Source: Alphaproteobacteria bacterium (GTDB lineage Bacteria; Pseudomonadota; Alphaproteobacteria; Rs-D84). From it: a DNA stretch of 64,000 bases. Where the stretch lies: contig JAVBUT010000008.1 in assembly GCA_031555055.1 (NCBI GenBank), forward strand, positions 3,354 to 67,353. The letters run 5' to 3'. Shown in pieces: positions 7,221 through 60,848 of this stretch. The notes below the pieces were generated by a model. The model made no database searches. It had not been told where the DNA came from and saw nothing but the letters and a program-made list of their open reading frames with translations. The position numbers were made by a program, and so were the translations under genes. Each line of letters starts with the position of its first letter. Within the stretch, counting starts at the first letter, position 1.

Positions 7221-7306
7221 CTTGGAAAAGAATCAGAAAATAGCGATCTGGAATCAGACTAAAAACAAACTTGAACTGATTCCTGATTCCTGATTCCTGA
7301 TTCCTT
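7221..7306. repeat. Periodic hairpin, TGATTCC 7-mer family (imperfect left arm, 4 perfect units on the right)
   Basis: Right arm is (TGATTCC)x4 at 7277-7304. Left arm GGAAAAGAATCAGAAAATAGCGATCTGGAATCAG. Confidence 0.8.
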
Positions 7307-7310
7307 TGAA

Positions 7311-7643
7311 CTATGCGGCGCGCGCAACTTTTTCTGTAACCGTCGTGGACGCGTCCATTGTCTTTTTCGCTTCGGCAAATACCATTTCTTTGACGCGCAA
7401 TGCCAACGCTTTTGTATCCAGACTTTCTGCGGCAACGTCAAAGTTGTCTGTGCGAATCTGCAACGAAACGTACGCACCGATCAAAGATGATCGTGGCAAA
7501 TCTTCCATTGATCTTGGCGTATTGTTATGACCAATGTGCAGTTCGTCCGACAGCGATATTATCTGGCGGTCTTCATTAACCCAAACCGTCGTGGTCAATA
7601 CTTGATTCAGCGCGACCATGATTTCTTTTATGTTCTTTTGCAT
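7311..7643 (-). CDS. Hypothetical protein (110 aa)
   Basis: Clean ORF with a TAG stop abutting the repeat. No motif recognised. Confidence 0.5.
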   Translation of the reverse strand: MQKNIKEIMVALNQVLTTTVWVNEDRQIISLSDELHIGHNNTPRSMEDLPRSSLIGAYVSLQIRTDNFDVAAESLDTKALALRVKEMVFAEAKKTMDASTTVTEKVARAA

Positions 7644-8027
7644 CCCCTGTTCCCCCTTGTTTTTATTAAAAATTAAAAACCGATAATAAAGAATTTGTAT
7701 TTACAACCGTATTTACAAATTCGTTATTTAAATTTTTAACCTGTTTTTGTTTTTATGCAGATTTCCGGTTTTTTGGCGGATTTCTGCGGTTTTTGAAACT
7801 CTTCGACTTGTCTATACACAGATCATAGAACAAAAACGAATCGGACGTCAAGCGCTTTTTATGTTTATTTTAATTTTATTTTCATTTTTATTGAAATTAC
7901 TTTAAAAACCATAAAATACCATAAACGGATTATAAATTGTCATTGACAACCAAAAATCAGCGTGCTAAATTTCATAGCGCAGAGAGAGAAGCAGGGACGA
8001 TTAAGTCCGAAAAGAAAGAGAATGTGA

Positions 8028-8477
8028 ATGTCATTATTTCTTTCATCTTATGAAAATCGCTTGGATACAAAGGGGCGCGTTTCCGTCCCGGCTTCTTTCC
8101 GTGCATCGATCGACGCTGAAAATTTCGCCGGGGTCGTTTTATACAGATCATTTACAAACAATTGCATCGAAGGCCTGTCGATGTCGCGCATGGAAAAAAT
8201 GGCCGCAGCAACAGACCAGATGGGTGTGTTTGACGGCACGCTGGACGATCTGTCCGCCATGTTGTTTGCGGACGCACGTCCATTGACATTTGATGTGACG
8301 GGCCGCGTGATTATCCCCGAAGATTTACTGGCGCACGCCGGCATTACGGACACCGCGGTATTCGTTGGCCGCGGCAACAGTTTTCAAATATGGAACCCGG
8401 ATGCATTCCGCGAAATGCAATCAAAGTCTTTAAGCAATCTGCGCAAATCCCGCCCGAATTTAAAGATCGGAAATTAA
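8028..8477 (+). CDS. mraZ: Transcriptional regulator MraZ
   Basis: YENRLDTKGRVSVPASFR and a second SpoVT/AbrB-like half DVTGRVIIPEDL. 149 aa. Confidence 0.9.
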   Translation: MSLFLSSYENRLDTKGRVSVPASFRASIDAENFAGVVLYRSFTNNCIEGLSMSRMEKMAAATDQMGVFDGTLDDLSAMLFADARPLTFDVTGRVIIPEDLLAHAGITDTAVFVGRGNSFQIWNPDAFREMQSKSLSNLRKSRPNLKIGN

Positions 8478-8514
8478 AAAAAATCTCACACATCATCGGT
8501 ATAGGGACGTTTTT

Positions 8515-8547
8515 TAATCATTAGTCAATAGTCATTAATCAATAGTA
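8515..8547. repeat. Single-arm tandem 7-mer array (GTCAATA/TCATTAG family)
   Basis: TAATCATTAGTCAATAGTCATTAATCAATAGTA. Confidence 0.75.
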
Positions 8548-8674
8548 TGGGGCGCATTCTTGCGCCCCTATGGTTTATATTCTTGGAAATAAATTAATCA
8601 AAAAACAAATCCGTCATTGCGAGCGAATGCGAAGCAATCCAGTCAAATATGAGAGCGCGTTTCGGACTGCGCCC
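8547..8674 (+). repeat. 128-bp composite repeat, copy 1 (REP hairpin + CATTGCGAG palindrome + REP-like end)
   Basis: 126/128 identical to 9323-9450. Ends GGGGCGCA...TGCGCCCC are inverted. Confidence 0.9.
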
Positions 8675-8745
8675 GTACGCATTCACATCATTATTTTTAT
8701 TGACAAAAAAATCATAAATGTGCACAATATAGAAAAAGACCAGAA

Positions 8746-9298: not shown

Positions 9299-9450
9299 CA
9301 GGGGCGGATTGTATCCGCCCAAATGGGGCGCATTCTTGCGCCCCTATGGTTTATATTCTTGGAAATAAATTAATCAAAAAACAAATCCGTCATTGCGAGC
9401 GAATGCGAAACAAGCCAGTCAAATATGAGAGCGCGTTTCGGACTGCGCCC
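9299..9450 (+). repeat. REP hairpin plus 128-bp composite repeat, copy 2 (9323-9450)
   Basis: CAGGGGCGGATTGTATCCGCCC followed by the copy of 8547-8674. Confidence 0.9.
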
Positions 9451-11531: not shown

Positions 11532-11543
11532 TGTATAATAAAA

Positions 11544-11622
11544 ATAACAATTAACATTTAACAAATAACAATTACAAAAGCAAGCCCCGGTAATTGTTAA
11601 ATGTTATTTGTTAATTGTTAAT
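11544..11622. repeat. Periodic hairpin, TAACAAT 7-mer family
   Basis: Arm ATAACAATTAACATTTAACAAATAACAATTAC and arm GTAATTGTTAAATGTTATTTGTTAATTGTTAAT. Fills the rpmF/plsX gap. Confidence 0.9.
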
Positions 11623-11771
11623 TATTTCGTTCCGCAAGCGGCGCAAACGTGATGCGGACGCTTTTTTTCACCGCATTTTTTACACAACGACGACGGCATG
11701 ATTGCGATCGCGTCGTGTGCGCGGCGCTGTGCGCTGCGTGCTTTGCTTGTTTTCTTTTTTGGTACTGCCAT
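11622..11771 (-). CDS. rpmF: 50S ribosomal protein L32 (49 aa, below the ORF-track cutoff)
   Basis: Hand translation gives MAVPKKKTSKARSAQRRAHDAIAIMPSSLCKKCGEKKRPHHVCAACGTK. Canonical position upstream of plsX. Confidence 0.88.
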   Translation of the reverse strand: MAVPKKKTSKARSAQRRAHDAIAIMPSSLCKKCGEKKRPHHVCAACGTK

Positions 11772-12300: not shown

Positions 12301-12363
12301 TCAGTGTCAGTGTCAGTGCCAGTGGAAGTGTCAGAAAGACATTAATCCACTGACACTGACACT
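12301..12363. repeat. Periodic hairpin, CAGTGY 6-mer family
   Basis: TCAGTGTCAGTGTCAGTGCCAGTGGAAGTGTCAG ... CACTGACACTGACACT. Lies between the HAD gene start and the rpoC stop. Confidence 0.85.
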
Positions 12364-12368: not shown

Positions 12369-16478
<4,110 letters not shown>

Positions 16479-16496: not shown

Positions 16497-16557
16497 ATCG
16501 TGATTCGTGAACCGTGATTCGTGACTCGAATTACGAATCACGAATTACGAATCACGA

Positions 16558-16558
<1 letters not shown>
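16497..16558. repeat. Periodic hairpin, GTGATTC 7-mer family
   Basis: ATCGTGATTCGTGAACCGTGATTCGTGACTCG / AATTACGAATCACGAATTACGAATCACGAC. Fills the rpoB/rpoC gap. Confidence 0.9.
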
Positions 16559-21274: not shown

Positions 21275-21340
21275 TAGTGACAGTGACAGTGACAGTGCCA
21301 GTATTTTGGGATTTCCCCACTGACACAGACACTGACACTA
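21275..21340. repeat. Periodic hairpin, GTGACA/CAGTGY 6-mer family
   Basis: TAGTGACAGTGACAGTGACAGTGCCAGT ... CCACTGACACAGACACTGACACTA. The right arm contains the rplJ TAG stop. Confidence 0.88.
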
Positions 21341-21835: not shown

Positions 21836-21927
21836 AATGTGCAATGTGCAATGTGCAATGTTCAATTGGTAAGTGCGCTGTGTGCGGTTTTATCTAATTG
21901 AACTTTGAACTTTGAACCTTGAACATT
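21836..21927. repeat. Periodic hairpin, TGTGCAA / TTCAAAG 7-mer family (imperfect)
   Basis: (TGTGCAA)x3-TGTTCAATTGG, a 27-nt loop, then AATTGAACTTTGAACTTTGAACCTTGAACATT. Confidence 0.8.
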
Positions 21928-22047
21928 CCTGTTAATTTTCCATCTTTCGATGGGGCTCTTTCGTGTCCCAAAAGAGCTTTTATCTCTTTTGTCTATGACG
22001 GAAATTAAAGTCTTGCGACCACCGTCAGTCTCGGACAGAAATTCTTT

Positions 22048-22108
22048 ACGTGACTCGTAATTCGTGATTCGTAATTCGAGTTACGATTCACGAGTCACGA
22101 ATTACGAC
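22048..22108. repeat. Periodic hairpin, GTGATTC 7-mer family
   Basis: ACGTGACTCGTAATTCGTGATTCGTAATTCG / AGTTACGATTCACGAGTCACGAATTACGAC. Abuts the rplA TAG stop. Confidence 0.9.
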
Positions 22109-23232: not shown

Positions 23233-23378
23233 TTATTTCTGATTTATGATTTCTGATTTCTGATTTGAATCAGACCATAATCATCATCAGGATTAGAGTT
23301 TGTGGTGCGATGTTGGCACATCTTCCACGCTTTTTTCGATCTATGAAATCAGAAATCCGAAATCATAAATCAGAAATC
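23233..23378. repeat. Periodic hairpin, TCTGATT 7-mer family, about 34-nt arms with about 70-nt loop
   Basis: TTATTTCTGATTTATGATTTCTGATTTCTGATTT ... GAAATCAGAAATCCGAAATCATAAATCAGAAATC. Fills the nusG/rplK gap. Confidence 0.88.
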
Positions 23379-24459: not shown

Positions 24460-24620
24460 AGGGATCAGGAATCAGTCAAAAGGAATCAGGAATTAGTAGG
24501 GGCGCATATTTGCGCCCTCTTTATTTTTGACTGGATTGCCACGTCGCTGACGCTCCTCGCAAAGACGGATTTGTGCTTAATCGCTAATTCCTATCGACTA
24601 ATTCCTAATTCCTGATTCCT
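24460..24620. repeat. Composite: TGATTCC-family periodic hairpin with two other palindromic elements nested in its loop
   Basis: Arms at 24460-24496 and 24582-24620. REP TAGGGGCGCATATTTGCGCCC at 24495-24517. GACTGGATTGCC..CTCGCAAAGACGG element at 24529-24568. Confidence 0.85.
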
Positions 24621-24686
24621 AAAAAAAAGGCTTGCGCCGGCAATGGCTTTTTTTCTACAATCGGTTAACAGGAGAGATTTTGCAGT

Positions 24687-25352
24687 ATGGCAGATAGCGT
24701 AGAACCACCGGTTTTGCTGTCCAGATTGATGACATTTGTATTCGCGGCCGCGGCCGTGGTTGTTGTCGTATTGATTGTGACTTTGGCGAAAATGTATCCG
24801 CTGAACCGGACCCAGGTATTTTTTTTGACGACACAACCGCGCAACGATCTGGAAATAAAACTGTCTTCTTTTTCGCCCGACACCCAGAATCTGGAAACCT
24901 ATAAACAAGCCTTTGTCAAAGAATACATCAAGGCACGCAACGAAATCATTCCGAACGCCGGTGTAATGCAGAACAAATGGAACACTTCTGGAACTGTTTA
25001 CATGTGGTCCACGCCAGAAATATACGACGCATTCGCGCAAACCGCGATGTGGACGGCGTACATGAATGACATACCTGATTTCGAATTCAGATGCCCTGTG
25101 GAATTCACAGGTGTCACGTTGCGCACTGAAAACACATACGCCGTAAAATTCAAGTATTTTTGCACAAATAGTAATGGACAAGACGGTGGCGAAAATTCTA
25201 CAATCACTGTGAAAAAGGACTATACGATTGTTGTTCGGTTGCAAATCGAAGATACGATCAAATGGACAGACCGATTACAAAACCCACTGGGGCTGCGGGT
25301 TTCCGGATACACGATCGAATCCGGCGACGGCGATCCACTTGATTTCAAGTAA
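24687..25352 (+). CDS. virB8: Type IV secretion system protein VirB8 family
   Basis: Short N-terminus, one TM segment (FVFAAAAVVVVVLIVTLA), periplasmic domain ending in the family hallmark NPLGLRVSGYTIES. RBS AGGAGAG. Confidence 0.8.
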   Translation: MADSVEPPVLLSRLMTFVFAAAAVVVVVLIVTLAKMYPLNRTQVFFLTTQPRNDLEIKLSSFSPDTQNLETYKQAFVKEYIKARNEIIPNAGVMQNKWNTSGTVYMWSTPEIYDAFAQTAMWTAYMNDIPDFEFRCPVEFTGVTLRTENTYAVKFKYFCTNSNGQDGGENSTITVKKDYTIVVRLQIEDTIKWTDRLQNPLGLRVSGYTIESGDGDPLDFK

Positions 25353-25357
25353 AACTT

Positions 25358-25508
25358 GGGATCAAAATGAAAAATGAAAAATGAAGAATGAAAAATTAGA
25401 TTCATTTATCATGACATTTTTCTCAAGACAAGGAAACAGGTAAACAAAGATGAACAAACTAATTAAATCATTTTTCATTCTTCATTTTTCATTTTTCATT
25501 TTGATCCC
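25358..25508. repeat. Perfect 39-bp inverted repeat (AATGAAA 7-mer family) with a 73-nt loop holding the virB9 RBS and ATG
   Basis: GGGATCAAAATGAAAAATGAAAAATGAAGAATGAAAAAT (25358-25396) is the exact reverse complement of 25470-25508. Confidence 0.95.
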
Positions 25509-26925
25509 ATTTGTATGCAATGCAAATGGCGTGCAAGAGGCTTGGGATAACCCGAACGCCAACATGGCCGCTGGTTCTGTAAAACCCGGATATGCCCAGC
25601 TGACCTGGTCGACGGGCGCGGTTCTGCCTATCAAATTGCGCAACGGAATGGTCACCATGGTAAATCTGCCCAATGGCGAAGAGATCGTCGACGGCGTTGT
25701 CGGAAACCAGGATTTGTTCGACTTTGATCCGCAAAAAAACGGGCGCAGCATGTTCATAACCCCCGCCGGCAGCAATCAGGGTGCAGACACTAATCTGATC
25801 GTAACCGGAAAATCCGGAAACAAATATATTTTCTATCTGCGCAGCGAGCCCGCCAACAGCTCTGAGATCACATATTCCCAGGTTGATATCGTACTGGACG
25901 GAAACTCTACACTGCCCGGCACAACCGGCTCTAATGCACAGTACGCCGGCATGAATTCCATATTTAAAAAGGCTTCCACTGGCGCCGGCAGCATGGTTGG
26001 CGTTGACGGCGAAGATTACGGCTGGATAAAATCGATGAAAATCGATCCGTCGGAATTCCGTTTCGATCTGGACATATTCGTTCCAAATCCGGACGACTAT
26101 GTAATCGCACCGGAACGCGTGTGGCGTGATAGAATCTTTACATACATTGACTTTGGCGACAAGGTTATCGCAATGACCCAGCGTCCTGTTGTATCGCTGT
26201 TGGTCGAAGGCGGCGAATCCCCGGTCGGATTCCGCACAGACGGCCAAGACGGCAGACTGTTGATAGTAGAAGCCGTGGGCGACATGGTTCTGCGCAGTGG
26301 ACAACGTATCGTATGCATCAAGAAACGTGAAAAGCCGTTCCTGATCGCGGATACCAACAGCGTTATGGCCCTGGCCGAAGCGAACGTCGCACGCAGCATG
26401 ATGTCCAGCCAATCGCTGAACAATGTCGCATACGGCGATATGCAGATGACACAGACACTGGGCGTGCAACAAATGGGCTATGGATATGCCGCACCGATGA
26501 TGATGCCGACATCCGGAACATACGGTGGATCAACGACGGCCGGCCTGGTGATGATACCGACAGAAAGAAACACAGCCGGCGCATATCTGCCACAAACAAA
26601 CATTCCGCTGATCAGCAGCAACCAAGCCGGTGTCGCGGTTGAATTAAAATCCGACACATCAGTCAAGGCATTGAATGATTACTGGACAGGATTATTGGCA
26701 AAGTTCAGCGGCGATGACGGCAAAGGCGTTCTGACGCCATACAAGAACAGCGTGTTCTTTGCGGTTGATGAACAAGGCGTCGGCGATCTGGGCGACGCTG
26801 CGACATCTGCGCGCCTGTACCGTCTGCGTATCGGTCCGATGTCTGATATCGACAGCGCACAAAAACTGTGCGACCAACTGTTAAAGTTCAGCGGCGCCAG
26901 CTGTCACGTGGTGAGAATACAATAA
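25450..26925 (+). CDS. virB9: VirB9/CagX/TrbG-family T4SS protein with C-terminal SPOR domain
   Basis: Signal peptide MNKLIKSFFILHFSFFILIPFVCNA. VTMVNLPNGEEIVDGVVGNQDLFDFD...TNLIVTGKSGNKYIFYLRS (VirB9 N-domain). RIFTYIDFGDKV...PVVSLLVEGGESPVGFR (C-domain). Tail LYRLRIGPMSDIDSAQKLCDQLLKFSGASCHVV (SPOR-like). Confidence 0.85.
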   Translation: MNKLIKSFFILHFSFFILIPFVCNANGVQEAWDNPNANMAAGSVKPGYAQLTWSTGAVLPIKLRNGMVTMVNLPNGEEIVDGVVGNQDLFDFDPQKNGRSMFITPAGSNQGADTNLIVTGKSGNKYIFYLRSEPANSSEITYSQVDIVLDGNSTLPGTTGSNAQYAGMNSIFKKASTGAGSMVGVDGEDYGWIKSMKIDPSEFRFDLDIFVPNPDDYVIAPERVWRDRIFTYIDFGDKVIAMTQRPVVSLLVEGGESPVGFRTDGQDGRLLIVEAVGDMVLRSGQRIVCIKKREKPFLIADTNSVMALAEANVARSMMSSQSLNNVAYGDMQMTQTLGVQQMGYGYAAPMMMPTSGTYGGSTTAGLVMIPTERNTAGAYLPQTNIPLISSNQAGVAVELKSDTSVKALNDYWTGLLAKFSGDDGKGVLTPYKNSVFFAVDEQGVGDLGDAATSARLYRLRIGPMSDIDSAQKLCDQLLKFSGASCHVVRIQ

Positions 26926-26984
26926 ACGTGAAACGTGAATCGTGAATCGTAATTCGAATCACGAGTCACGAATCACGAATTACG
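26926..26984. repeat. Periodic hairpin, GTGATTC/GTGAATC 7-mer family
   Basis: ACGTGAAACGTGAATCGTGAATCGTAATTCG / AATCACGAGTCACGAATCACGAATTACG. Fills the virB9/virB10 gap. Confidence 0.9.
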
Positions 26985-26989
26985 AAAAA

Positions 26990-29269
26990 ATGAAAACATT
27001 AAAACAATCTTTCACTGAATTAAAGCAAAGCACTCCGAAACATGTGCAGTGGTTATTGCTGGCGGCGGCGTTTGTCGTGGTCTTGATTCTGCTGACACTG
27101 TTGTTGGGCGGCGATAAAAAAGATTCTGACAAAATCACAACAGGCACTGTTCAGCCCGTGCTGACCGTTGATCCACGTGAACTGGATTGGTCTGCCGTTA
27201 CTGTTGGCGAAACCGTTACGCAACGCTTTGTCGTGTCGGCAAATACCGCGATCAAGGTTGACGATGTCCGTCTGTCCAAGGGTATCGTCGGTCTGGCCAA
27301 GCCCAGAACCACATGCACAAACATCGGTCAAATAAACGAAAAGCTGTCATGCACGGTCAGTTTGGAATATGCACCGACAGCGGCGATGGAAACCAGCGCG
27401 CTGTCCATGTTCATTGACTGGCGCGGCGCGACCCAGCCAGAAAAAATGAAAACCACCGAAACCGTTACGATCGCAATCGGCGCTGTGCTGCCAAAGCCTG
27501 TGGTAGCACCACAGCCCGTGATCGAACCAGCACCGAAATCCCAGATGCAACAGGAAATAGAGGAACTCGTCCAGCCTGCACCATTCTTTGAAGCCCCACA
27601 GGAGGTAAAAAAACCGACTGCGCCTGTCACTGAAAATATCCCCAGCGAGGCATGCTCGGACTTTGCGTTCCCTGGATACGGCACATCCGGTCAGCAAATC
27701 GGTTGGATCAAGCCCAGCCGCGGTACATATAACTTTCACCCGTTTTCTGACAAGAACTGCGCCAGTCCGACCGGCACTTATAATCCTGACAATGGCATAA
27801 TCACCGACAGCGCTGGCAAAAAAATTGGCACCGACGCCGAGCATATCGGCTTTGGCATGAACAGCACCGTCGCAATGCCGCTGTTGTCGAACGCACCGTC
27901 GCCACGCATTGAAAACAAGGCACGCCAGGTAACATCAGCTGAACTGGCACCGGCCGGAAAATCCGCACGCGTATTCTCTGCGCCGACACCGGAAACACTG
28001 CTTAAATCCACTGGTTCGACCGTGACATCCACCGCGCCATACGACCGCACATTTATTCTGCGCCAGTACAAGCCTATTCCCGCAACTATCGTGTCCGAAA
28101 TTCGCGCGGACCAGCGCTTGTTGAATGCGGATCATAAATTGCCGGTCATCGCAACAGTGGATCGCAATGTTTATTCCGACAATGGCCGTACGATTATCAT
28201 CCCAACCGGAACAACACTGTACGGATATGTTACCGGCGACGTGCCCGGACCATACAAGGCGATCGGCAGAATGGAAATCCGCTGGTATCAGTTCGTTCGT
28301 CCGGACGGTGTAGAATTTAACTTTGATGGCAACAATATGGACCCGTTCAGCGCCGATGCCCAGGGACGCGCCGGCGTGCCGGGACGTGGCTCTACGGACT
28401 ATATCGAACAGTTCGTCATGCCAATGCTGACCGCGATTGTGCCTGCGGCGGTAAATATGATTGCGCCAATCTCGGACAGCTTTATCAACCAGATCGATCT
28501 GGATAACAATACCGTCACACAAAGTGGCCAGGTTCGCTCTTCGGAATTGGCCAAGAACGAAATAATAACCGCATGGAACAAGGTCGCCCAGAAATTATTG
28601 GTCGATATGATGGACAATACCGTACCGCCGTTCTCTATTGCCGCTGGCACACGCATAACGGTATTCTCGCCAATGGATTTACAGGTAACATGTGGTGCGG
28701 AAACCGGCAAGAAATGCTCTGTTGCGCCATACGGCAAAGATGTTCGCGCAAATCCAGGCGCAGCGGTCACAATGGGTCAAAGCCCTGAAAACGCTGGCAG
28801 TATGGTCGGCCAGGTACGCTCGTTCGACATAATAAAATACTGCGACGGCAAAGGCGGTGTAAAGTCCGGTATGGAAAAAGAAATCTACGAAGCCGGTATG
28901 GATTACCGCACAGTTTTATTCGCGTGCCAGTCATCGCAATACGTCGCGATCAATACCGCCAAACAGGAAGCTGTGTTCCAAAACCAACAGCAGACCACAT
29001 ATACCAGCCCCACAACCGGCGAAAAGATGCAGCCAGGCACCAAAGAATATAATGAACAGGTCCTGGACTTGAAATACAACAAGGACGGCACTATACAGAA
29101 TCCGTTCAATCCACCGGCACCGCCCGCCACGCCGACCATCACATGTGAAGACGGTATGGCGCCTGACGCAAACGGATGCTGTGCCGGCGAAACATACACC
29201 GACATGGGCGAACAAGGGTTCAACTGTTGTCCTGCCGGCGGCGGCGACTGTTTCCCGCCGATAATATAG
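26990..29269 (+). CDS. virB10: VirB10/TrbI-family T4SS protein with extra Ig-like N-terminal module and Cys-rich C-terminal tail
   Basis: TM segment WLLLAAAFVVVLILLTLLLGG. Pro-rich LPKPVVAPQPVIEPAP. Core IPATIVSEIRADQ...PVIATVDRNVYSDNGRTIIIPTGTTLYGY...RMEIRWYQFVRPDGVEF...DAQGRAGVPG. Start taken at MKTLKQ downstream of the repeat. Confidence 0.85.
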   Translation: MKTLKQSFTELKQSTPKHVQWLLLAAAFVVVLILLTLLLGGDKKDSDKITTGTVQPVLTVDPRELDWSAVTVGETVTQRFVVSANTAIKVDDVRLSKGIVGLAKPRTTCTNIGQINEKLSCTVSLEYAPTAAMETSALSMFIDWRGATQPEKMKTTETVTIAIGAVLPKPVVAPQPVIEPAPKSQMQQEIEELVQPAPFFEAPQEVKKPTAPVTENIPSEACSDFAFPGYGTSGQQIGWIKPSRGTYNFHPFSDKNCASPTGTYNPDNGIITDSAGKKIGTDAEHIGFGMNSTVAMPLLSNAPSPRIENKARQVTSAELAPAGKSARVFSAPTPETLLKSTGSTVTSTAPYDRTFILRQYKPIPATIVSEIRADQRLLNADHKLPVIATVDRNVYSDNGRTIIIPTGTTLYGYVTGDVPGPYKAIGRMEIRWYQFVRPDGVEFNFDGNNMDPFSADAQGRAGVPGRGSTDYIEQFVMPMLTAIVPAAVNMIAPISDSFINQIDLDNNTVTQSGQVRSSELAKNEIITAWNKVAQKLLVDMMDNTVPPFSIAAGTRITVFSPMDLQVTCGAETGKKCSVAPYGKDVRANPGAAVTMGQSPENAGSMVGQVRSFDIIKYCDGKGGVKSGMEKEIYEAGMDYRTVLFACQSSQYVAINTAKQEAVFQNQQQTTYTSPTTGEKMQPGTKEYNEQVLDLKYNKDGTIQNPFNPPAPPATPTITCEDGMAPDANGCCAGETYTDMGEQGFNCCPAGGGDCFPPII

Positions 29270-29892: not shown

Positions 29893-29990
29893 AGTCAATA
29901 GTCACTAGTCAATAGTCAATAGTCATTAGTAATTTAACTATTAAGCACCGCTAACGACTATTGACTATTGACTAGTGACTATTGACTAAG
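29893..29990. repeat. Periodic hairpin, GTCAATA 7-mer family
   Basis: AGTCAATAGTCACTAGTCAATAGTCAATAGTCATTAGT ... ACTATTGACTATTGACTAGTGACTATTGACTAAG. Confidence 0.9.
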
Positions 29991-29998: not shown

Positions 29999-30377
29999 AA
30001 TGCTTATCGGATTTACACACAAAACTTCAAAGATTCTGCCGCGGATTTTATGCCGGCGGTTCCGGCATTGCGCGGTTGTTATAAATAAAAAACGAAAAAT
30101 GAAAAATGAAAAATGTTTTGTTATGTACCAAGTTGGCAAAGGATCAATAAAACAAATCCCATTGTCTGCGCGCGATTTGAAAATCCTAGAGCAACACGGC
30201 TGGGTGTTTATAGATTATACAACCTTGTCCCCGTATTGCCTTGGCCCGGCCCTGTCCCGCCATTATACATGCGTTGGATTCGCCAAACATATTTTAGAAA
30301 TCCGCGATCCTTTTATAATCACCCCGGACCAGTTGTATAAAAAATTAGCACATGGTGCACAGCGATTAGAATATTGA
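29999..30377 (+). CDS. Hypothetical protein (125 aa) with an in-frame AATGAAA repeat
   Basis: MLIGFTHKTSKILPRILCRRFRHCAVV... The KKRKMKNEKC segment is encoded by CGAAAAATGAAAAATGAAAAATG (30091-30115). Confidence 0.5.
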
Positions 30378-32574: not shown

Positions 32575-32635
32575 CTCGTGATTCGTGATTCGTGATTCGT
32601 GACTCGAATTACGAATCACAAATTACGGTTCACGA
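32575..32635. repeat. Periodic hairpin, GTGATTC 7-mer family
   Basis: CTCGTGATTCGTGATTCGTGATTCGTGACTCG / AATTACGAATCACAAATTACGGTTCACGA. The right arm contains the lspA TGA stop. Confidence 0.9.
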
Positions 32636-33186: not shown

Positions 33187-33291
33187 CGATAGTCAATAGT
33201 CGATAGTCATTACCATGGGCGCAAATATGCGCCCTTATCAAATTCGATTTACGGTTTATGAAAAAAGGGCGCGTTTCCACGCGCCCCTACT
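33187..33291. repeat. Single-arm GTCAATA array followed by two REP hairpins
   Basis: CGATAGTCAATAGTCGATAGTCATTAC, then GGGCGCAAATATGCGCCC (33217-33234), then GGGCGCGTTTCCACGCGCCCCTAC (33267-33291). Confidence 0.85.
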
Positions 33292-38399: not shown

Positions 38400-38485
38400 G
38401 AACAAAATGATACAAAAAATTCGACACACGGGTCAATGGATAAAACAGTATTAATTTTTCATTCTTCATTTTTCATTTTTCATTT
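38351..38485. repeat. Perfect 32-bp inverted repeat (AATGAAA family) with a 71-nt loop holding the dac start codon
   Basis: AAATGAAAAATGAAAAATGAAGAATGAAAAAT (38351-38382) is the exact reverse complement of 38454-38485. Confidence 0.95.
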
Positions 38486-44584: not shown

Positions 44585-44660
44585 AAAATTCCGTCTTTGC
44601 GAGGAGCACAGCGACGCGGCAATCCAGTTAAATAAAGAGGGCGCAAATATGCGCCCCTAC
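44585..44660. repeat. CATTGCGAG-family palindrome followed by a REP hairpin
   Basis: CCGTCTTTGCGAGGAGCACAGCGACGCGGCAATCCAGT, then GAGGGCGCAAATATGCGCCCCTAC. The truA TAG stop lies in the CCCCTAC tail. Confidence 0.8.
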
Positions 44661-45895: not shown

Positions 45896-46753
45896 TTACT
45901 CCCCAATTTTTATTTCTGTGCCACGCAAACCATTTACAAACGATTTCCAGTCCATCGGTTTTTTCCCAGCGGGCTGGATACGTATGATTTCAAGGCTTGG
46001 GCACCCCCCCCCGCAAGGAGGGAGTTTATCCGCATAACTTAATTTTGTCTCAAGAATCTTTACATCAATCCCGTTGATTTTTGTTCGGCCACCGATTGAA
46101 CGGACCTGGTTATGAATTTGCTGCGGTGATTTTGACCAGTCGATTATCGTATCTTCTTTGGAAAATTTATGCGTGTATGTCGGCGTGCCGATTTGTTCGA
46201 TTGTCGAATATATTTTCGGATTCTGTAAAAAACCGGACAGCATTTCAGTAGACACAGATGCAACATTTTTTTCCAAATCGACAATCGTATCGTTTTCACC
46301 GATTTTAATTTTCCGGCACATATAGATCGGGCCCGCGTCAACGTCACGTGTTAATTTCATCAGGCATACACCCGTGTCACTATCGCCGTTTAATATCGCA
46401 GACAGCATAGGCGCCGGCCCGCGATACTTTGGCAACAAAGACGGGTGAATATTTATCGTCGGCGCCGCGTTTAGCACATCATCTTTTAATATAACACCGT
46501 ATGACGCCACAACGATATAGTCAATGGATTTATGATTTATGATTTCTGATTTATGATTTAAATCAGAAATTTTTGTATAAACCGGAATGTTTCTAGATTC
46601 GGCCCAGATGTGCACAGGTGATTTTTGCAGTTCCATTTTACGGCCGGCGGGCTTTGGCGCGCGCGTAAAGACCGCCACAATATTGTGTTCGTTTGCCGCA
46701 CGATCAAAAATCGGCACAACCCAATCGTTCGTGCCCATTAGAATTAATTTCAT
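45896..46753 (-). CDS. fmt: Methionyl-tRNA formyltransferase
   Basis: MKLILMGTNDWVVPIF, INIHPSLLPKYRGPAPM, and a C-terminal domain. Start taken downstream of the repeat-encoded extension. Confidence 0.9.
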   Translation of the reverse strand: MKLILMGTNDWVVPIFDRAANEHNIVAVFTRAPKPAGRKMELQKSPVHIWAESRNIPVYTKISDLNHKSEIINHKSIDYIVVASYGVILKDDVLNAAPTINIHPSLLPKYRGPAPMLSAILNGDSDTGVCLMKLTRDVDAGPIYMCRKIKIGENDTIVDLEKNVASVSTEMLSGFLQNPKIYSTIEQIGTPTYTHKFSKEDTIIDWSKSPQQIHNQVRSIGGRTKINGIDVKILETKLSYADKLPPCGGGCPSLEIIRIQPAGKKPMDWKSFVNGLRGTEIKIGE

Positions 46754-46754
46754 T

Positions 46755-46837
46755 ATCGTGACTCGTGACTCGTGACTCGTGACTCGTAAAACGAAAATAT
46801 TATCTTTCGAATCACGATTCACGAATTACGAATCACG
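46755..46837. repeat. Periodic hairpin, GTGACTC/GTGATTC 7-mer family
   Basis: ATC(GTGACTC)x4GTAAAACG ... CGAATCACGATTCACGAATTACGAATCACG. The right arm contains the def TGA stop. Confidence 0.9.
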
Positions 46838-53668: not shown

Positions 53669-54997
53669 TTACTCGCCCAGTTTTTTTACAGATTCCGCAG
53701 ACATTAAGATATTGTACTTTGCATTCATCAGCGCCATGTCCAGTTGTGACAGTGCGGATGAAACTTCGGACAGTTCAACGGCGGACGTCTGGCCGGCCGC
53801 AAATCGGTCCGACGATATGTTGTATGCCTTTTGCGCCAATGCCCGTGCGTTTTCCAACGCCGCCAGGTTACCGCGCAAATGTTCATACTTTTTTACCGCA
53901 GTGTTATATTCTTCGGTTTTGATTTTTTTGGATTTGTCCAGGTCCTGGCGCGTCGCTTCGGCATTCATGGCTTCTATCGTGCCTTGGGCGCGATTCATTC
54001 CGCCGTCAAAGATCGGAACTGTCATGGCCAGACCCCAGTATGCAGACTGTGATCCGGATGTGTCGAACATATGTCCAATATCGTCACCCATCGAAACAAA
54101 GTTATACGACGCCATCGCGGCCAGCGTCGGATAGTTTCCCGCACGTTTAGATCGGGCGTTTGATTCGTACATCTTTACCTGCATGTCCAGCATATCCCAT
54201 TCCGGATTTTTGGTCAACCGGCCCGCGGTGATCGAATCGAATTTTTCCGGCAGTTCGTCGGTCAAATTCAGCTCTTCATCAGTTTCGATTCCCGCCATGA
54301 TTTTCAGCATGCGGTGCGCGGTGTCGCGATTGAACTGCGCATCCGACAAATTGATTTCCTTGGTCGCGATATCGGATTCCAGCTTTATCAAATTGCTGCG
54401 GTTTGCGCGCCCGGCCGATGTCAGCTTTTTACGCGCGGAAACAGCATCCTGTAACGATTTTTCTTGGATTGCAACCAGACCGTCTGTCATTTTCGCCGTC
54501 CAGTACAGATTTGCCGCGGCATAGCGGACTTCGCGCTTTGTGATGTCGGCGCCTTTTTCAGACATCTTTACAGCGCTGCGCATTCCGTCAACTGCGTTTC
54601 CGATTTTTCCGAATGTGTAAATCGGCTGGGTGATTGTGGCACCCGCCATAAAGATATTGTTCGGGATCGTTATGTTGTTGATGTTCACCTGGCCCTGGGT
54701 CGCGTCAATGATCAGGCCACCCAGCGCCGGGGGCAGATCGACACCCATCGGATCACCGGGTTTTTCAACGTTCACCAGATTCATGTACTGGGCACTGCCT
54801 TCGATTTTAAACCAGCGGTTCGCATTTGCGGAATCCAATCCGGCTTGTGCTTTTTTCAGATTCGCGTCCGCTTTTTTAATATCATGGGATTCCTTGGCGA
54901 TCTTGTCAACCGCCGCATTGAACGTCAGGTCCATCGCATTTACTGCACCGATGGCCGACACTGACACTAACACTGGCACTAACACTAATTTACGCAT
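53669..54997 (-). CDS. TolC-family outer-membrane efflux protein
   Basis: Two OEP-type repeats (LKKAQAGLDSANANRW..., LQDAVSARKKLTSAGRANRSNL...). Signal peptide MRKLVLVPVLVSVSAIGAVNA. Confidence 0.85.
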   Translation of the reverse strand: MRKLVLVPVLVSVSAIGAVNAMDLTFNAAVDKIAKESHDIKKADANLKKAQAGLDSANANRWFKIEGSAQYMNLVNVEKPGDPMGVDLPPALGGLIIDATQGQVNINNITIPNNIFMAGATITQPIYTFGKIGNAVDGMRSAVKMSEKGADITKREVRYAAANLYWTAKMTDGLVAIQEKSLQDAVSARKKLTSAGRANRSNLIKLESDIATKEINLSDAQFNRDTAHRMLKIMAGIETDEELNLTDELPEKFDSITAGRLTKNPEWDMLDMQVKMYESNARSKRAGNYPTLAAMASYNFVSMGDDIGHMFDTSGSQSAYWGLAMTVPIFDGGMNRAQGTIEAMNAEATRQDLDKSKKIKTEEYNTAVKKYEHLRGNLAALENARALAQKAYNISSDRFAAGQTSAVELSEVSSALSQLDMALMNAKYNILMSAESVKKLGE

Positions 54998-55478
54998 TTA
55001 CGATCTCCATTTTTTTTAATATTTCATTCATTGTTTGAACCGCCTGGGTCAACCTGGATTCATCCGCGACGCTGATGTCCGAAAACAGCGTCGCAATACC
55101 TTTGCGGAATTTTTCCAGTACACGTCCCACTTCGCGACTGCCGGCCGGCGTCACGGAATACCAAGTATTGCGGCGGTCATCCTGGTCAACGACACGCGCG
55201 ACCATTCCGTCACGTTCCAGCTTTTTGAACATCGCGCACAACGCCGGCGCAGTTATGCATTCGCGGCTGGCGATATCTTTCAACTTGGCGCGTCCGCCGA
55301 CATGCAGACGAACCAGCGCGGCCATTTGTAATTTGGTATATTTGGAAAATTTCGAAGGATCAACTTTTAACCGATCGGCCAAACGCCCCAGGATAAAGAC
55401 ATTTTCTTCGATCAGATGTATGAAATCTTTTTGAACCATTTCGTCATCCTTTGATTTATTGTTTCGACCATTAATCAT
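54990..55478 (-). CDS. MarR-family transcriptional regulator
   Basis: LQMAALVRLHVGGRAKLKDIASRECITAPALCAMFKKLERDGMVARVVDQDDRR. Confidence 0.85.
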   Translation of the reverse strand: MINGRNNKSKDDEMVQKDFIHLIEENVFILGRLADRLKVDPSKFSKYTKLQMAALVRLHVGGRAKLKDIASRECITAPALCAMFKKLERDGMVARVVDQDDRRNTWYSVTPAGSREVGRVLEKFRKGIATLFSDISVADESRLTQAVQTMNEILKKMEIVNA

Positions 55479-55553: not shown

Positions 55554-55628
55554 TGGCAGTCCCAACGGGAATCGAACCCGTATTACCAGAATGAGAATCT
55601 GGTGTCCTAACCGTTAGACGATGGGACC
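55554..55628 (-). tRNA. tRNA-Glu (anticodon CTC)
   Basis: Reverse complement is GGTCCCATCGTCTAACGGTTAGGACACCAGATTCTCATTCTGGTAATACGGGTTCGATTCCCGTTGGGACTGCCA. Glu-type D-arm. The 1-72 pair is G-U as folded by hand. Confidence 0.8.
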
Positions 55629-55740
55629 AAAACTTGAAACAGTACTTTTTTACACGCGCCCAGGCCTTTGTCATTCCGGCCCAAGCCGGAATAATGAAAG
55701 CAAATACAAAAAAACGGCACATTATGCCGATTCAAAAGAC

Positions 55741-55814
55741 TGGTTGGGCCACACGGATTCGAACCGCGATAAAGGGAACCAAAATCCCTTGTCCTACCGT
55801 TAGACGATGGCCCA
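55741..55814 (-). tRNA. tRNA-Gln (anticodon TTG)
   Basis: Reverse complement is TGGGCCATCGTCTAACGGTAGGACAAGGGATTTTGGTTCCCTTTATCGCGGTTCGAATCCGTGTGGCCCAACCA. The U1-A72 pair is typical of tRNA-Gln. Confidence 0.85.
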
Positions 55815-55990: not shown

Positions 55991-56065
55991 TTTTATACAG
56001 AGCAGATAATATCTACCCCTACAACCTGTCCCGCCCACGGCGGGGAAGTGAATGGAAAAATCAAA

Positions 56066-56584
56066 ATGAGCAGACAAATACAAATCCGCCGCGGCACAGC
56101 GGCACAACACCAATCATTCATCGGGGCGATTGGTGAAGTAACAATGGACATCGATACCAAGACACTGCATGTGCACGACGGCGTGACGCCGGGCGGAATC
56201 CCATTGGCACGGCGCGACGAAATCCCGGAAAACACCGGCGGCGGCACAACCGAAATTCCAAACAACTATGACTTTGTCATCGAATCCGCGTCCGGTTTAA
56301 CTGGTACTGGATACACAAACGGATGGTATCGGAAATACAAATCCGGATGGACCGAACAAGGTGCATCCATATTACTCCAGGTCGGCGCCGACAGCACACA
56401 CGCCTTGCCGATTGCGATGTTGGATACAAACTATCAGGCATTGGTTGTTCCCGGGAACACCAGTGCGTCGAACATCCCCCAGGGCTGGGTTCGTCAAAGA
56501 AACACAGGATCAATAGTCGCCAGAGGCGCAACAAACGGCAGTAACCTGGCCAGCTTTTTGGTAATCGGAATACATGCTAATTAA
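56066..56584 (+). CDS. Phage tail-fibre-like protein (isolated)
   Basis: MSRQIQIRRGTAAQHQSFIGAIGEVTMDIDTKTLHVHDGVTPGGIPLA (tail-fibre/Mtd-type N-terminal motif). GWYRKYKSGWTEQG (tail-fibre C-terminal-type motif). Confidence 0.65.
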   Translation: MSRQIQIRRGTAAQHQSFIGAIGEVTMDIDTKTLHVHDGVTPGGIPLARRDEIPENTGGGTTEIPNNYDFVIESASGLTGTGYTNGWYRKYKSGWTEQGASILLQVGADSTHALPIAMLDTNYQALVVPGNTSASNIPQGWVRQRNTGSIVARGATNGSNLASFLVIGIHAN

Positions 56585-58785: not shown

Positions 58786-58787
58786 AA

Positions 58788-59885
58788 TTATCTCCTGATA
58801 AATTTAAACAACGGGATAAACTTAAACACGTAAAGCCAGTTGTCGCGTGTCCGGAACAGCGGCACATACAGTACGTAAATATTGACCGCGCCCGCCGCGC
58901 GTTTTACGCGCCACAACGATATTTTGCCAAACAATTTGAAATTAAATTCATTGTTCGCGACCAGACCCATGCGTTTGCAAGCCTTGTAAAAACCGTCCAA
59001 ATCTTCACACGCCAAATACGGGTACAGCGCATGGTGTTCACGAGCAAAATCCGACTTGTACTTGCATTTTGCGTAAATCTTTATATATTCCGCACAGATT
59101 ATTTTATGTGCATCCGCGGATGTTGTTTTATTAAATATCCATTTGATATCATGAAACACACGATTGAATATGTGCATATAGTCTTTACGTGGCATTTTGT
59201 TTGAATTAATAAAATCAACGAACATTTCGCGTACTTTCAGCTGGCTGATTGTCTTGTAACGCGGTGAAAATTCAGAATCCAGGGAATCCGGACGACGTAC
59301 CCAGTAATAGTGCGCATCGTCAATTGTTTTTACGCGATTGGCGTAATACACGCATTTTAGCTGAAATATTAAATCTTGGCCGGTCGGTATATCCGCGGGA
59401 AAACTGATATTATTTTCCATGACAATTTTATGACTGTATATTGCAGCCTGCCATTGCGCGTAAAATATATATTTGTTTTCTTCAATCCATTTGTGCAGAT
59501 ATATCTTTTTTTGATCATTTATCACAATTGCGCTTTTTACAATATCTGCGCCGGATTCGATTGCGGCATTGTACAGCTTTTCAAAAAAATCCAGATCGAC
59601 ATAATCGTCCGAATCGACAAAGCCCAAAAATTCGCCGGCCGCAATGGCCAGTGCCGCATTGCGCGCCGACGCTGCACCGCAATTTTCAGTCATTGCGATA
59701 ACCCGGACACGCGGATCGTGGCGTTCATATTCGCGTGCGATTTCCAACGACGCGTCGGTAGAACAATCGTCGACCAGAATTATTTCAATATCGCGTAAAG
59801 TCTGATTTACCAGCGAATCCAAACACTTGCGGAAATATGGGGATTCATTGTTAAAAAACGGTGTTATAATTGATACTTTTGGCAT
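58788..59885 (-). CDS. Family 2 glycosyltransferase
   Basis: VSIITPFFNNESPYFRKCLDSLVNQTLRDIEIILVDDCSTD, GFVDSDDYV. Confidence 0.85.
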   Translation of the reverse strand: MPKVSIITPFFNNESPYFRKCLDSLVNQTLRDIEIILVDDCSTDASLEIAREYERHDPRVRVIAMTENCGAASARNAALAIAAGEFLGFVDSDDYVDLDFFEKLYNAAIESGADIVKSAIVINDQKKIYLHKWIEENKYIFYAQWQAAIYSHKIVMENNISFPADIPTGQDLIFQLKCVYYANRVKTIDDAHYYWVRRPDSLDSEFSPRYKTISQLKVREMFVDFINSNKMPRKDYMHIFNRVFHDIKWIFNKTTSADAHKIICAEYIKIYAKCKYKSDFAREHHALYPYLACEDLDGFYKACKRMGLVANNEFNFKLFGKISLWRVKRAAGAVNIYVLYVPLFRTRDNWLYVFKFIPLFKFIRR

Positions 59886-60009
59886 TTGATAATATTTTTA
59901 ACCAAACGCCCCGCCCGCACTTTTGCAAGCAGTTATTTTATATATTCCAGGCGTTTGAAAACCTTTTATCAAAAGACTAGGACATATTATGTAAAAGTTC
60001 AAGAAAAAA

Positions 60010-60033
60010 CTGGCCCGCTTTCGGCCAGTTTTT
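60010..60033 (-). terminator. Terminator downstream of the merR-like gene
   Basis: CTGGCC-CGCTTTC-GGCCAG flanked by A6/T5 runs. Confidence 0.65.
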
Positions 60034-60053
60034 ATTCCCAGTTATAAAAGCGC

Positions 60054-60479
60054 CTAGGCCAGCAATGCCCGCGCAGCTTCCAGCAATTTGATCGCGTCAT
60101 CAATTTCGGATTTATGTGTCGGTTCCCCTCTGGATAAAGGGAGTGCCCGCGAGTCGCGTGATGTGGACAAACTTTGGGGATTTGATAACGACACCTCGGG
60201 CTTTGCCCACCCCTCTGCCAGAGGGGAACTAACGTTTTCCAGATTACCATCTTTGATAATCTTTTTGACACCCATGATCGTCATGCCGCGATTGTACAAC
60301 AGGTCTTTGATAATTTCCAGCGCGCCGACTGTTTCAGGCCGATAGTATCGGCGTCCGCCGTTTCCGGTTGTGGGCCGTATCACGGTCGGGAATTGCTTTT
60401 CCCAATAACGCAAAGTATGCGCCGGAATATCCAGCCGTGTCGACACATCGTTAATCGATGAAAAATACTCTTTGTTCAT
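60054..60479 (-). CDS. MerR-family transcriptional regulator
   Basis: FSSINDVSTRLDIPAHTLRYWEKQFPTVIRPTTGNGGRRYYRPETV. Start at MNKEYF downstream of the REP. Confidence 0.85.
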   Translation of the reverse strand: MNKEYFSSINDVSTRLDIPAHTLRYWEKQFPTVIRPTTGNGGRRYYRPETVGALEIIKDLLYNRGMTIMGVKKIIKDGNLENVSSPLAEGWAKPEVSLSNPQSLSTSRDSRALPLSRGEPTHKSEIDDAIKLLEAARALLA

Positions 60480-60494
60480 TTTGTTTTTCCTTTT

Positions 60495-60522
60495 GTAGGG
60501 GCGGTTCACGAACCGCCCCTAC
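60495..60522. repeat. REP hairpin
   Basis: GTAGGGGCGGTTCACGAACCGCCCCTAC. Confidence 0.85.
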
Positions 60523-60533
60523 CAGCCGTCACA

Positions 60534-60848
60534 TTATTTACCGCACTTGTACATATAGACCTTGTGGCCGATGTAATCATTGCTGCCCAGTACCATGCCG
60601 CCATAGCTATAGTTGACTTCCTTGGATATGCGCAATGTGTCGCCACCCTCACCCGCCGTGCGATTGCGGACATAGTTCAATGATTCTTCGCGATTCATAT
60701 TATATCCGGTTGTATCCAGATCATCCAACAGTTCGCACCCCGACGGTTTTGAATCAACGATTTTCACCGCCATGCCGGCCGGCGTTTGTGCTGTGGTCGT
60801 ACATGCCGCCAGTGCCAGTGTCAGTGACAGTGTCAGTACGGTTTTCAT
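60534..60848 (-). CDS. Small lipoprotein (DUF4156-like)
   Basis: MKTVLTLSLTLALAAC lipobox. CELLDDLD...NYVRNRTAGEGGDTL. ATGA overlap with the upstream gene. Confidence 0.65.
   Translation of the reverse strand: MKTVLTLSLTLALAACTTTAQTPAGMAVKIVDSKPSGCELLDDLDTTGYNMNREESLNYVRNRTAGEGGDTLRISKEVNYSYGGMVLGSNDYIGHKVYMYKCGK

Follow-up and report, generated by a model that had tools for sequence, protein, structure and literature searches.

Tandem heptanucleotide arrays, mostly in inverted pairs, at gene junctions of an uncultured alphaproteobacterium and their possible origin by slippage and template switching

Hairpins built from tandem heptanucleotides lie at many gene junctions of a 64-kb stretch of DNA (the window: 64,000 nucleotides of contig JAVBUT010000008.1, assembly GCA_031555055.1) from an uncultured alphaproteobacterium. 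Their class is that of long simple sequence repeats (SSRs) or short tandemly repeated repetitive sequences (STRRs): arrays of about four to five heptanucleotide (occasionally hexa- or octanucleotide) units, mostly set as inverted pairs. In what we take as the best reading, held with rather more belief than doubt, these are heptanucleotide microsatellites that were amplified by slippage, mirrored by template switching and retained where they were tolerated. Mirrored arms, arms that bracket older sequence, arms that are read in frame, and turnover of the unit at the same junctions together make slippage plus template switching the best fit, and this was among the mechanisms offered in a first-pass annotation of the window. 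The pattern in the sequence suggests that the hairpins were made in place by DNA copying errors, and not inserted as mobile elements.

Tandem Repeats Finder (TRF) reported about 45 arrays of period 7 or 6 in the window, and a single scoring scheme gave 23 arrays of period 7 and four of period 6. This is an excess over the null: in 50 order-2 Markov simulations the count averaged 0.04 for each of the two periods and never exceeded one. The same scheme yielded no array of period 4, 5, 8-10 or 13 in the window, and a signal at period 14 is the period-7 arrays counted again at double the period. Every locus on the first-pass list was recovered by TRF and inspection of the sequences, in place or displaced by a few bases. 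Our catalogue holds 17 inverted pairs and eight single arms, in about eight unit families (Table 1); 12 of the window's pairs are strict. Arms are 16-42 nt long, mostly about 30 nt, and stems of 25-35 bp are possible. The window arrays have what marks a heptanucleotide SSR or STRR (at least three tandem 7-nt copies, in excess over composition), and also what marks the Xanthomonas type, two nearby arrays of the same unit on opposite strands.

Placement at gene ends is frequent. In 12 of the 17 cases the hairpin begins 0-5 nt from the stop codon upstream or overlaps it, and in many the gap left ahead of the following start codon is 1-18 nt, in keeping with the earlier remark that they fill short gaps and are not followed by T-runs. 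None is terminator-like; a scan of the window for such sites (GC-rich stem, 3-8-nt loop, U-tract) picked up no heptamer hairpin. Nor did any hairpin reach a gathering threshold of Rfam 15, with which the window gave four tRNAs only. Folding of both strands, as had been advised, gave stable stems with minimum free energies (MFEs) of -11 to -64 kcal/mol, mostly -25 to -60, and similar values on the two strands. Strand-specific RNA pairing, with G:U on one strand and A:C on the other, was ruled out, as energies and pair types on the two folded strands had no consistent bias. Units such as CGTGATT, AAAATGA, AGTCAAT and ATTTCTG, and the others in the window, hold no G3 tract and are not of the G-rich GGGANTN, G-quadruplex type. 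A purpose in placing stops in all three frames was dropped, since GC-rich acidobacterial units such as CGCCTCC have no stops; each window hairpin does have a stop-containing arm, for which our own estimate of the chance expectation with A/T-rich heptamers is about 64%. All but about six arms lie in spacers. The exceptions, several single arms and two hairpin arms in ksgA, fmt and the signal peptides of virB9 and dacA, are coding, in frame, and in tolerant protein segments.

Several pairs stand around resident sequence. The nusG-rplK arms enclose an rplK leader element, GTGGAAGATG.GCCACATCG.ACCAC, that is present in all relatives, and in one relative (L081, GCA_031266915.1, RpoB 90% identical) different arms flank the same leader. 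Within the virB9 loop are the ribosome-binding site (RBS), the ATG and the first codons, which are ancestral (M.K.I/L.K), and the 3' arm at 25468-25502 encodes the signal-peptide core SFFILHFSFFIL. In L081 virB9 is likewise bracketed and encoded, by another unit. The dacA loop contains the dacA start codon and a sigma70-like promoter (38436-38407, TTGACC-18-TATCAT) that is conserved in another relative, L085. One dacA arm, 38351-38383, encodes the DacA signal-peptide core FFILHFSFFI, and the 5' arm lies upstream of the dacA promoter and downstream of the pyk terminator. Because this 5' arm is outside the transcript, the main dacA mRNA cannot fold into this stem, an indication of an origin at the DNA level; selection on structure, which the first-pass annotation had also proposed, thereby cannot, at least in RNA, be a general cause.

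The VirB9-like protein and the DacA-like D-Ala-D-Ala carboxypeptidase, unrelated exported proteins, have a common N-terminal module, M(N/R)KLI..FFILHFSFFI. It is encoded at 25450-25520 (plus strand) and 38330-38402 (minus strand) by ATGA..AAACTAATTA and the same (TCATTTT)n array, and is in effect a duplicated start-site and signal-peptide cassette within a hairpin. A further leader, GATTTCTGTCC.AGACTGATGGTG...CCATCATAGACAAAGA, lies upstream of rplJ (21930-22047, minus strand) and is common to all relatives (L001-L083). Both it and the rplK leader (23267-23344, minus strand) scored below every Rfam gathering score.

Comparison of orthologous junctions, which had been suggested as a check, gave empty spacers in L085 and junctions filled with other units in L081. 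The virB9-virB10 spacer is 13 nt in L085 and the gapR-RNHCP spacer 3 nt, and def and fmt overlap there. In L081 the virB9-virB10 spacer carries a (CCGTAAT)x5/(GATTACC)x5 pair, and the pair at the rpmF/plsX junction has AGATAGT as its unit, unlike that of the window. At the two junctions where the filled form was set against the empty one of L085 (gapR/RNHCP and virB9/virB10) no target-site duplication was found. Together with the bracketing of resident sequence, this upholds the earlier contention that the hairpins are unlike MITEs (miniature transposable elements with inverted repeats).

The units of the window form copied families. It had been held that the loci share an architecture and not a sequence, and this is true across loci, genomes and phyla, where we count 88 distinct canonical units, and where 44 sets of adjacent arrays with the same period are inverted and two are direct (all sources); within this genome the units do fall into sequence families. 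Three TGATT-NN families that had been kept apart are one superfamily. The GTGATTC family comprises five compact palindromes of about 61 nt, each with four units, TCGA and four units, plus a coding array. The arms of the virB9 and dacA pairs, 13 kb apart, agree in full over 32-33 nt, down to a G variant in their fourth unit, and their loops differ in the middle. Identical arms, and unit families with common variant positions, imply some copying of arrays between loci.

Perfect mirroring, variant units included, is seen in the pairs at 23235, 25364, 29893 and 38351. The description of arms as reverse complements suits many pairs but not that at 21836-21927, where each arm is homogeneous inside and the partners mismatch at two positions in every unit. 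At 46755-46837 arm 1 is 100% GTGACTC and arm 2 is GTGATTC. This is the pattern that concerted evolution within arms, by slippage or unequal exchange, would leave if it outpaced correction between arms. Loss of mismatch repair was rejected as a cause and is not required, because an array-bearing relative encodes a full-length MutS. A universal motif that would imply a sequence-specific enzyme was also rejected: no k-mer is enriched more than about 2-fold among the 88 units, whose sole tendency is an alternation of A/T blocks and G/C blocks. At rpoB-anchored loci the G-richer arm is the 5' arm in 38 of 49 pairs (38 against 11), and in CGTRATT pairs from metagenome contigs the polarity is mixed, so a polarity rule is kept as a tendency only.

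Arrays have also entered coding sequence. In ksgA the array at 35531-35561 encodes ERITNHESRITS, inserted in a loop whose length varies (loop 2), and about 90 nt upstream in the gene loop 1 reads GGGACTG GGAATTC GGAACCG GGAACTG, a degenerate 7-nt periodicity. KsgA/RsmA homologs of the clade (alignment P0121-P0194) have 7-aa-periodic insertions in an N-terminal extension (NHESRITNH) and in two surface loops; examples of KsgA insertions are WTMDDGRW/SSTVHRPSS, GNDELGIGNDD and IENGKLKIENE. Called starts of ksgA open reading frames (ORFs) are probably extended artificially by upstream arrays. In L086 (2786-2923) an inverted heptamer pair lies within ksgA; its arms make up the two loops and flank the conserved YAICSNLPYNVGTELLIRWLH catalytic core. 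The fmt array is an 8-aa insertion, SEIINHKS, relative to the Fmt of L085, and belongs to the unit family of the nusG-rplK arms. Codons beside it differ from those of L085 (ISEY to ISDL, with Ser changed from AGC to TCT), and now spell the complement of the array; such rewriting would be consistent with the multinucleotide signature expected of template switching.

A second stretch of the window's ksgA, 35317-35343 on the minus strand, reads GGAATCA GCAGCCA GGAATCA GGAATTA. It matches the TGATTCC family with no change of length against homologs, and would be an overwritten stretch and not an insertion.

Similar arrays recur in other genomes, with other units. In 20 kb of L081 we count no fewer than 20 arrays, and they lie at the same junctions as in the window, namely virB10/virB9, virB9/virB8, nusG/rplK, rplJ/rplL, rpoB/rpoC, the 3' end of rpoC and rpmF/plsX. 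L007, L082 and L083, as distant as L081, are array-poor and have ordinary hairpins. That the window and L081 are sisters that inherited their hairpins was rejected, as the RpoB identity matrix gives no specific sister relation. All, or nearly all, relatives of the window have some hairpin directly 3' of rpoB, and many of these have TAGTGGN/CCACTAA arms around a GC-rich inner hairpin.

For Acidobacteriota (L036-L080) the end of rpoB was used as the anchor, because spurious ORFs make ORF-based gene context unreliable in GC-rich genomes. A period-7 array was found within 450 nt after rpoB in 20 of 43 acidobacterial loci, with an inverted pair in 12 of the 43; in other phyla the figures were three and one of 23 loci. 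In the acidobacterial rpoB-rpoC pairs the first arm lies no more than 25 nt past the stop, the unit is different in nearly every genome, and the loops, of 50-115 nt, contain an inner hairpin. Loop sequences among these loci are not generally conserved; agreement is confined to close pairs, L036 and L044 for example. One acidobacterial metagenome-assembled genome (MAG), L078, which is among the loci fetched solely for encoding RpoB, has about 20 period-7 arrays in 24 kb. The unit CGTRATT is present in at least three tandem copies on more than 120 metagenome contigs of 31-71% G+C, and hence in very different organisms.

Two further observations concern array size and period. Some metagenome contigs carry very long single CGTRATT arrays of 105-188 nt (L141, 8431-8618; L150, 7479-7600; L132, 7220-7324), to be compared with the four to five units of window arms. 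Period-8 families of the GTAATTTG type also occur in three Acidobacteriota (L038, L043 and L065).

We infer slippage and template switching as the molecular steps, and likewise the reason for a 7-nt period. Replication slippage would amplify and homogenise a 7-nt unit in one arm. Template switching of the quasipalindrome type, within or between strands, would then copy the array, inverted, across a short spacer, which in many cases would be a hairpin already there or some other resident sequence. Between loci, arrays built of one unit could template each other, spreading families with their variant positions. Purifying selection would leave arrays only at tolerant sites, that is after stops and in leaders, signal-peptide cores and surface loops; at protein-coding sites length changes would have to be multiples of 3 nt. 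Quasipalindrome template switching in E. coli and yeast is known to make the arms of inverted repeats complementary via multinucleotide changes (PMC7202029, PMC8604942, PMC5941160).

Seven nucleotides might be the shortest unit at which a misalignment by one unit keeps an extendable primer-template duplex and leaves a loop too large for MutS, which handles small loops only (PMC4060949). Chance two-copy seeds would be 4-fold rarer for each added base, so that the shortest unit to pass would dominate, with minor shoulders at 6 and 8, which are indeed observed. This idea extends the suggestion of Mrazek and colleagues, as relayed in later papers, that the heptamer period is due to the polymerase footprint (PMC4679880, PMC4692102). 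Some arrays may secondarily act as stems in mRNA 3'-end formation or processing, stabilisation, translational coupling or Rho shielding.

Several points weigh against this account. Local steps are insufficient for the identical arms 13 kb apart and for the GTGATTC palindromes with their five to six copies; these require copying between loci, and the trans-templating step is conjecture. What favours 7 so strongly against 5, 6 and 8 has been given a rationale, not a proof. In the protein database the source lineage is a singleton, with the closest RpoB just 90% identical, and the only strain set compared (P0024) consists of identical strains that carry no arrays. What indirect evidence there is for unit numbers varying between strains comes from the homogenisation within arms. 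The Fmt proteins compared share only 61% identity, so that the Ser codon could have switched in steps. The recurrence of a hairpin after rpoB, in the relatives and in many Acidobacteriota, could fit a selected functional RNA stem equally well.

If stems are what is selected, long RNA stems at operon junctions (for RNase III, as a barrier to 3'-exonucleases, for translational coupling or for Rho shielding) would be the primary cause, and periodic arms the easiest way of lengthening them, by duplicating a 7-bp helix segment on both sides. We regard this as an improbable primary cause. Stems of 25-35 bp do suffice for RNase III, the placement of hairpins between stop and start codons and after rpoB suits it (with the first acidobacterial arm so close to the stop), and a G-richer 5' arm would keep C-rich RNA paired. 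Yet the dacA 5' arm lies upstream of the gene's own promoter, arrays also occur as single arms and within the coding sequence of ksgA and fmt, and certain stems have two mismatches per 7 nt. Folding energies and the balance of G:U and A:C pairs have no strand bias, the polarity bias is absent from the metagenome CGTRATT pairs, and the sharp 7-nt period is left unexplained. Still less can be said for arrays maintained as platforms for a protein that polymerises in a 7-nt or 7-bp register, which we consider very improbable. The omega repressor of pSM19035, which binds WATCACW heptads, and HutP, which binds UAG-N4 repeats, are precedents for such a register; the narrow copy number and arm length would suit it, and the commonest unit, AATCACG, resembles the omega heptad. 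A sequence-specific binder is excluded by the number of unrelated units (at least eight in the 64 kb, 88 overall) without a common k-mer. The same unit also occurs in contigs of widely different G+C content and from many environments, and arrays within essential coding regions are unlikely operators.

Non-autonomous mobile palindromes, like MITEs, repetitive extragenic palindromic (REP) sequences or REPINs, would be copied by a trans-acting, structure-recognising enzyme, each unit family being an element family. This, too, we find improbable. It would account for dispersed unit families, for five palindromes of about 61 nt with one layout, for the identity of the arms at 25364 and 38351 down to the variant unit, and for the empty orthologous spacers of L085; the patchy spread, rich in the window and L081 and poor in L007, L082 and L083, is like that of lineage-specific bursts. 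The insertion of a single unit cannot, however, place arms on both sides of a conserved leader, promoter, start codon or coding core. Conserved termini, like target-site duplications, are missing from the two filled-versus-empty sites, loops differ between copies with identical arms, and the 88 units are unrelated. No transposase (Y1 included), RAYT or reverse transcriptase (RT) turned up among the roughly 60 ORFs of the window, which cover 64 kb only and were given no search aimed at RT, so that this weighs little. Integron attC sites (R''-L''...L'-R' layout, GTTRRRY core sites, cassette arrays beside intI) came into consideration solely because structure defines them too; no integrase was seen among the window ORFs scanned, and the hairpin loci sit in core operons (rplKAJL-rpoBC). 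Wider in scope is the idea of a general, sequence-independent process, whether a specific property of the replisome or of repair or an unrecognised structure-directed enzyme, that would lay down 7-nt arrays, with inverted copies of them, about hairpins, promoters and start sites that were there before. Cells would have co-opted its products as a modular clamp at conserved operon junctions, rpoB-rpoC for one, in phyla as far apart as Alphaproteobacteria and Acidobacteriota, and as new peptide segments (signal-peptide cores, 7-aa repeats in enzymes). We give this version a small but real chance.

Table 1. Periodic arrays and hairpins catalogued in the window, with one ksgA-related site of L084
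Position	Strand	Form and unit	Details and context
7221-7306		inverted pair, CTGATTC	3' arm 7276-7305, 4.3 perfect copies; 5' arm degenerate; 4 nt past stop of minus-strand ORF 7311-7643
8514-8547		single arm, TCAATAG/TCATTAA	after mraZ; GC-rich terminator-like palindrome 8549-8568 directly next
11537-11623		inverted pair, TAACAAT	upstream of plsX; rpmF flank assigned by synteny with relatives
12301-12363		inverted 6-mer pair, TCAGTG/CACTGA	fills rpoC stop (12369) to next start codon (12299)
16497-16558		compact 62-nt palindrome, CGTGATT/CGTAATT	overlaps rpoB stop; ends 18 nt before rpoC start
21275-21340		inverted 6-mer pair, AGTGAC	overlaps rplJ stop; ends 16 nt before rplL start
21836-21927		inverted pair, (AATGTGC)n vs (TTGAACT)n	between conserved rplJ leader and rplJ RBS
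22048-22108		compact palindrome, GTGATTC family	overlaps rplA stop codon
23233-23378		inverted pair, ATTTCTG	nusG-rplK spacer; 31/32 positions mirrored
24460-24622		inverted pair, AGGAATC/TAATTCC	divergent tRNA-Trp/virB8 region; encloses terminator-like GC palindrome 24499-24518
25358-25508	+	inverted pair, AAAATGA, perfect mirror	virB9 RBS, ATG and first 6 codons in loop
26924-26986		compact palindrome, GTGATTC family	fills virB9-virB10 spacer
29893-29990		inverted pair, AGTCAAT	arms agree at 32/32 positions, variant unit included
30083-30115		single arm, AAATGAA	
30954-30990		weak single arm, TATTCGC, 76% matches	overlaps yidC 3' end (stop 30981)
32575-32635		compact palindrome, GTGATTC family	lspA stop to yidC start
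33187-33213		single arm, ATAGTCA	beside GC-rich palindromes
35317-35343	-	weak TGATTCC-like periodicity	inside ksgA
35531-35561	-	perfect (CGTGATT)x4.4	inside ksgA
38351-38485	-	inverted pair, arms those of 25358-25508	dacA promoter and start codon in loop
40350-40411		inverted pair, CAAAGTG/TTGAACT	fills gapR-RNHCP spacer
46526-46572	-	(AAATCAT/AAATCAG)x4.7 and short inverted partner	inside fmt
46755-46837		inverted pair; arm 1 100% (TCGTGAC)x4.6, arm 2 CGTGATT type	def stop to fmt start (M24 of ORF)
54957-54988		single 6-mer arm, GACACT	2 nt downstream of stop of MarR-like gene 54990-55478
60808-60837		single 6-mer arm, CAGTGN	8 nt downstream of stop of ORF 60845-61291
6806-6831 of L084		site recorded with the 7-aa-periodic KsgA/RsmA insertions	

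A separate family of 20-nt GC-rich palindromes, GGGGCGCAT(T/A)(C/T)TTGCGCCC(C/T), is found at 8549-8568, 9325-9344, 24499-24518, 33267-33286 and 44638-44657 (minus strand). T-rich sequence often follows, and the palindromes are frequently beside heptamer hairpins or within their loops; those at 8549 and 9325 do not differ, even in a 10-nt tail. They look like the ordinary terminators of this genome.

The window is core chromosome of about 48% G+C. The host has kin among MAGs from gut and rumen that go by the labels 'Candidatus Enterousia', 'Rickettsiales bacterium' or 'Alphaproteobacteria bacterium'. On the minus strand the window carries tRNA-Trp-secE-nusG-rplKAJL-rpoBC; its other genes include virB8-virB9-virB10, yidC, lspA, a kefB-like gene, ksgA, recR, dacA, pyk, gapR, RNHCP, pyrG, comEC, truA, fmt, def, rmuC, an AcrB-type pump and gyrA. 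Gene order is kept in all relatives fetched. A plasmid or mobile-element origin of the region was ruled out, there being no plasmid match and the core region being syntenic in all relatives.

Three features of the gene content may be recorded. The virB8-virB9-virB10 genes (24687-29269) adjoin secE-nusG-rplKAJL-rpoBC in divergent orientation, and this arrangement is kept throughout the clade (L001-L083, L085). An in-frame TAG interrupts rpoC at 16254-16256 (minus strand; YECACG*YKRIKF), within the conserved zinc-binding segment; every relative has a Lys codon (AAG) there. The remainder of the gene is intact, and the TAG probably reflects an error of sequencing or assembly, or else a polymorphism within the MAG. 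The ORF at 56048-56584 (plus strand) encodes an Mtd_N domain, named after the N-terminal part of the major tropism determinant; this is the protein targeted by the diversity-generating retroelement (DGR) of the Bordetella phage. It adjoins tRNA-Glu and tRNA-Gln genes at 55554-55814 and may be a remnant of a prophage or DGR.

Heptanucleotide excess has been known since 2007 without a tested explanation, and the window and its relatives make the question testable. They offer arms round datable resident sequence, orthologous junctions with complete turnover of the unit, close genomes with and without the trait, and coding copies that record 21-nt events. If the template-switch model is true, it describes a route to long stems and to new 7-aa-periodic peptides in one or a few mutational steps. 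In practice, arrays inflate ORF calls, as with the 'NHESRITNH' extension of KsgA, and annotation can be misled.

The kind of repeat described here is already known, from heptamer SSR excess, STRRs and the Xanthomonas pairs; in so far as the first-pass contrast with sequence-defined elements implied a lack of precedent, it fails in view of the heptanucleotide excess and of the GGGAATC pairs of Xanthomonas. Cyanobacterial STRRs, reportedly described by Mazel et al. in 1990, are said to be dispersed, intergenic heptanucleotide repeats with several units per genome. They are like the window in that several heptamer units share one genome, and unlike it in that their arrays are direct. Calothrix repeats, and few paired repeats in Nostoc, are mentioned in the Xanthomonas study (PMC4692102). 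Heptanucleotides are the commonest class of long SSRs in many bacteria, according to summaries of the work of Mrazek in 2007 (LSSR5-11; PMC4679880, PMC4692102). The arrays of Mrazek, Guo and Shah, as so summarised, agree with those of the window in being tandem 7-nt repeats, mostly intergenic and patchy, with 7 the dominant period and slippage proposed; in these summaries they are treated singly, with no inverted-pair hairpins, multi-unit genomes, bracketing or in-frame arms (PMC4679880, PMC4692102). Xanthomonas has 70-75 convergent inverted GGGAATC pairs per genome (Rehm et al. 2015, PMC4692102), and the type of repeat, single or pair, is usually kept between species while its length varies (PMC4692102). 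These repeats (GGGANTN) are likewise intergenic, usually of four units and in inverted pairs, but they form one G-rich family with a G-quadruplex focus, whereas the window has many units, mostly A/T-rich and not G-quadruplex-capable, with coding and bracketing arms (PMC4692102). TAACTGA repeats, known from Beggiatoaceae, cyanobacteria and Bacteroidetes (MacGregor 2015, PMC4679880), also come as 2-6 heptamer copies at gene boundaries, including those of ribosomal-protein operons, and occasionally in ORFs; they differ in having a single unit, 169 direct sets against one indirect, and a position just upstream of starts, not at stops (PMC4679880).

REP, BIME and REPIN sequences are, like the window hairpins, short intergenic palindromes in dispersed families, often at the 3' ends of genes within operons (PMC3116915). 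REPs and REPINs are, however, sequence-defined and RAYT-linked, have non-tandem arms and insert as units without bracketing (PMC3116915). A REP or REPIN is recognised by a family-specific imperfect palindrome of 20-40 nt together with a cognate RAYT gene; the GTGATTC palindromes do form a family, and no Y1 transposase turned up among the roughly 60 ORFs of the 64 kb examined. Quasipalindrome mutagenesis is known as a hotspot mechanism at individual loci, not as a genome-wide builder of hairpins with periodic arms (PMC7202029); its effects on coding sequence (PMC8604942) and the conservation of inverted repeats (PMC5941160) have been described. Four things are new beside these systems: many unrelated units in one genome, mainly as hairpins; the same operon junctions occupied with full turnover of the unit, rpoB-rpoC in two phyla among them; promoters, leaders and start sites enclosed by arms; and the in-frame invasion of coding sequence, with 7-aa-periodic peptides and shared signal-peptide cores.

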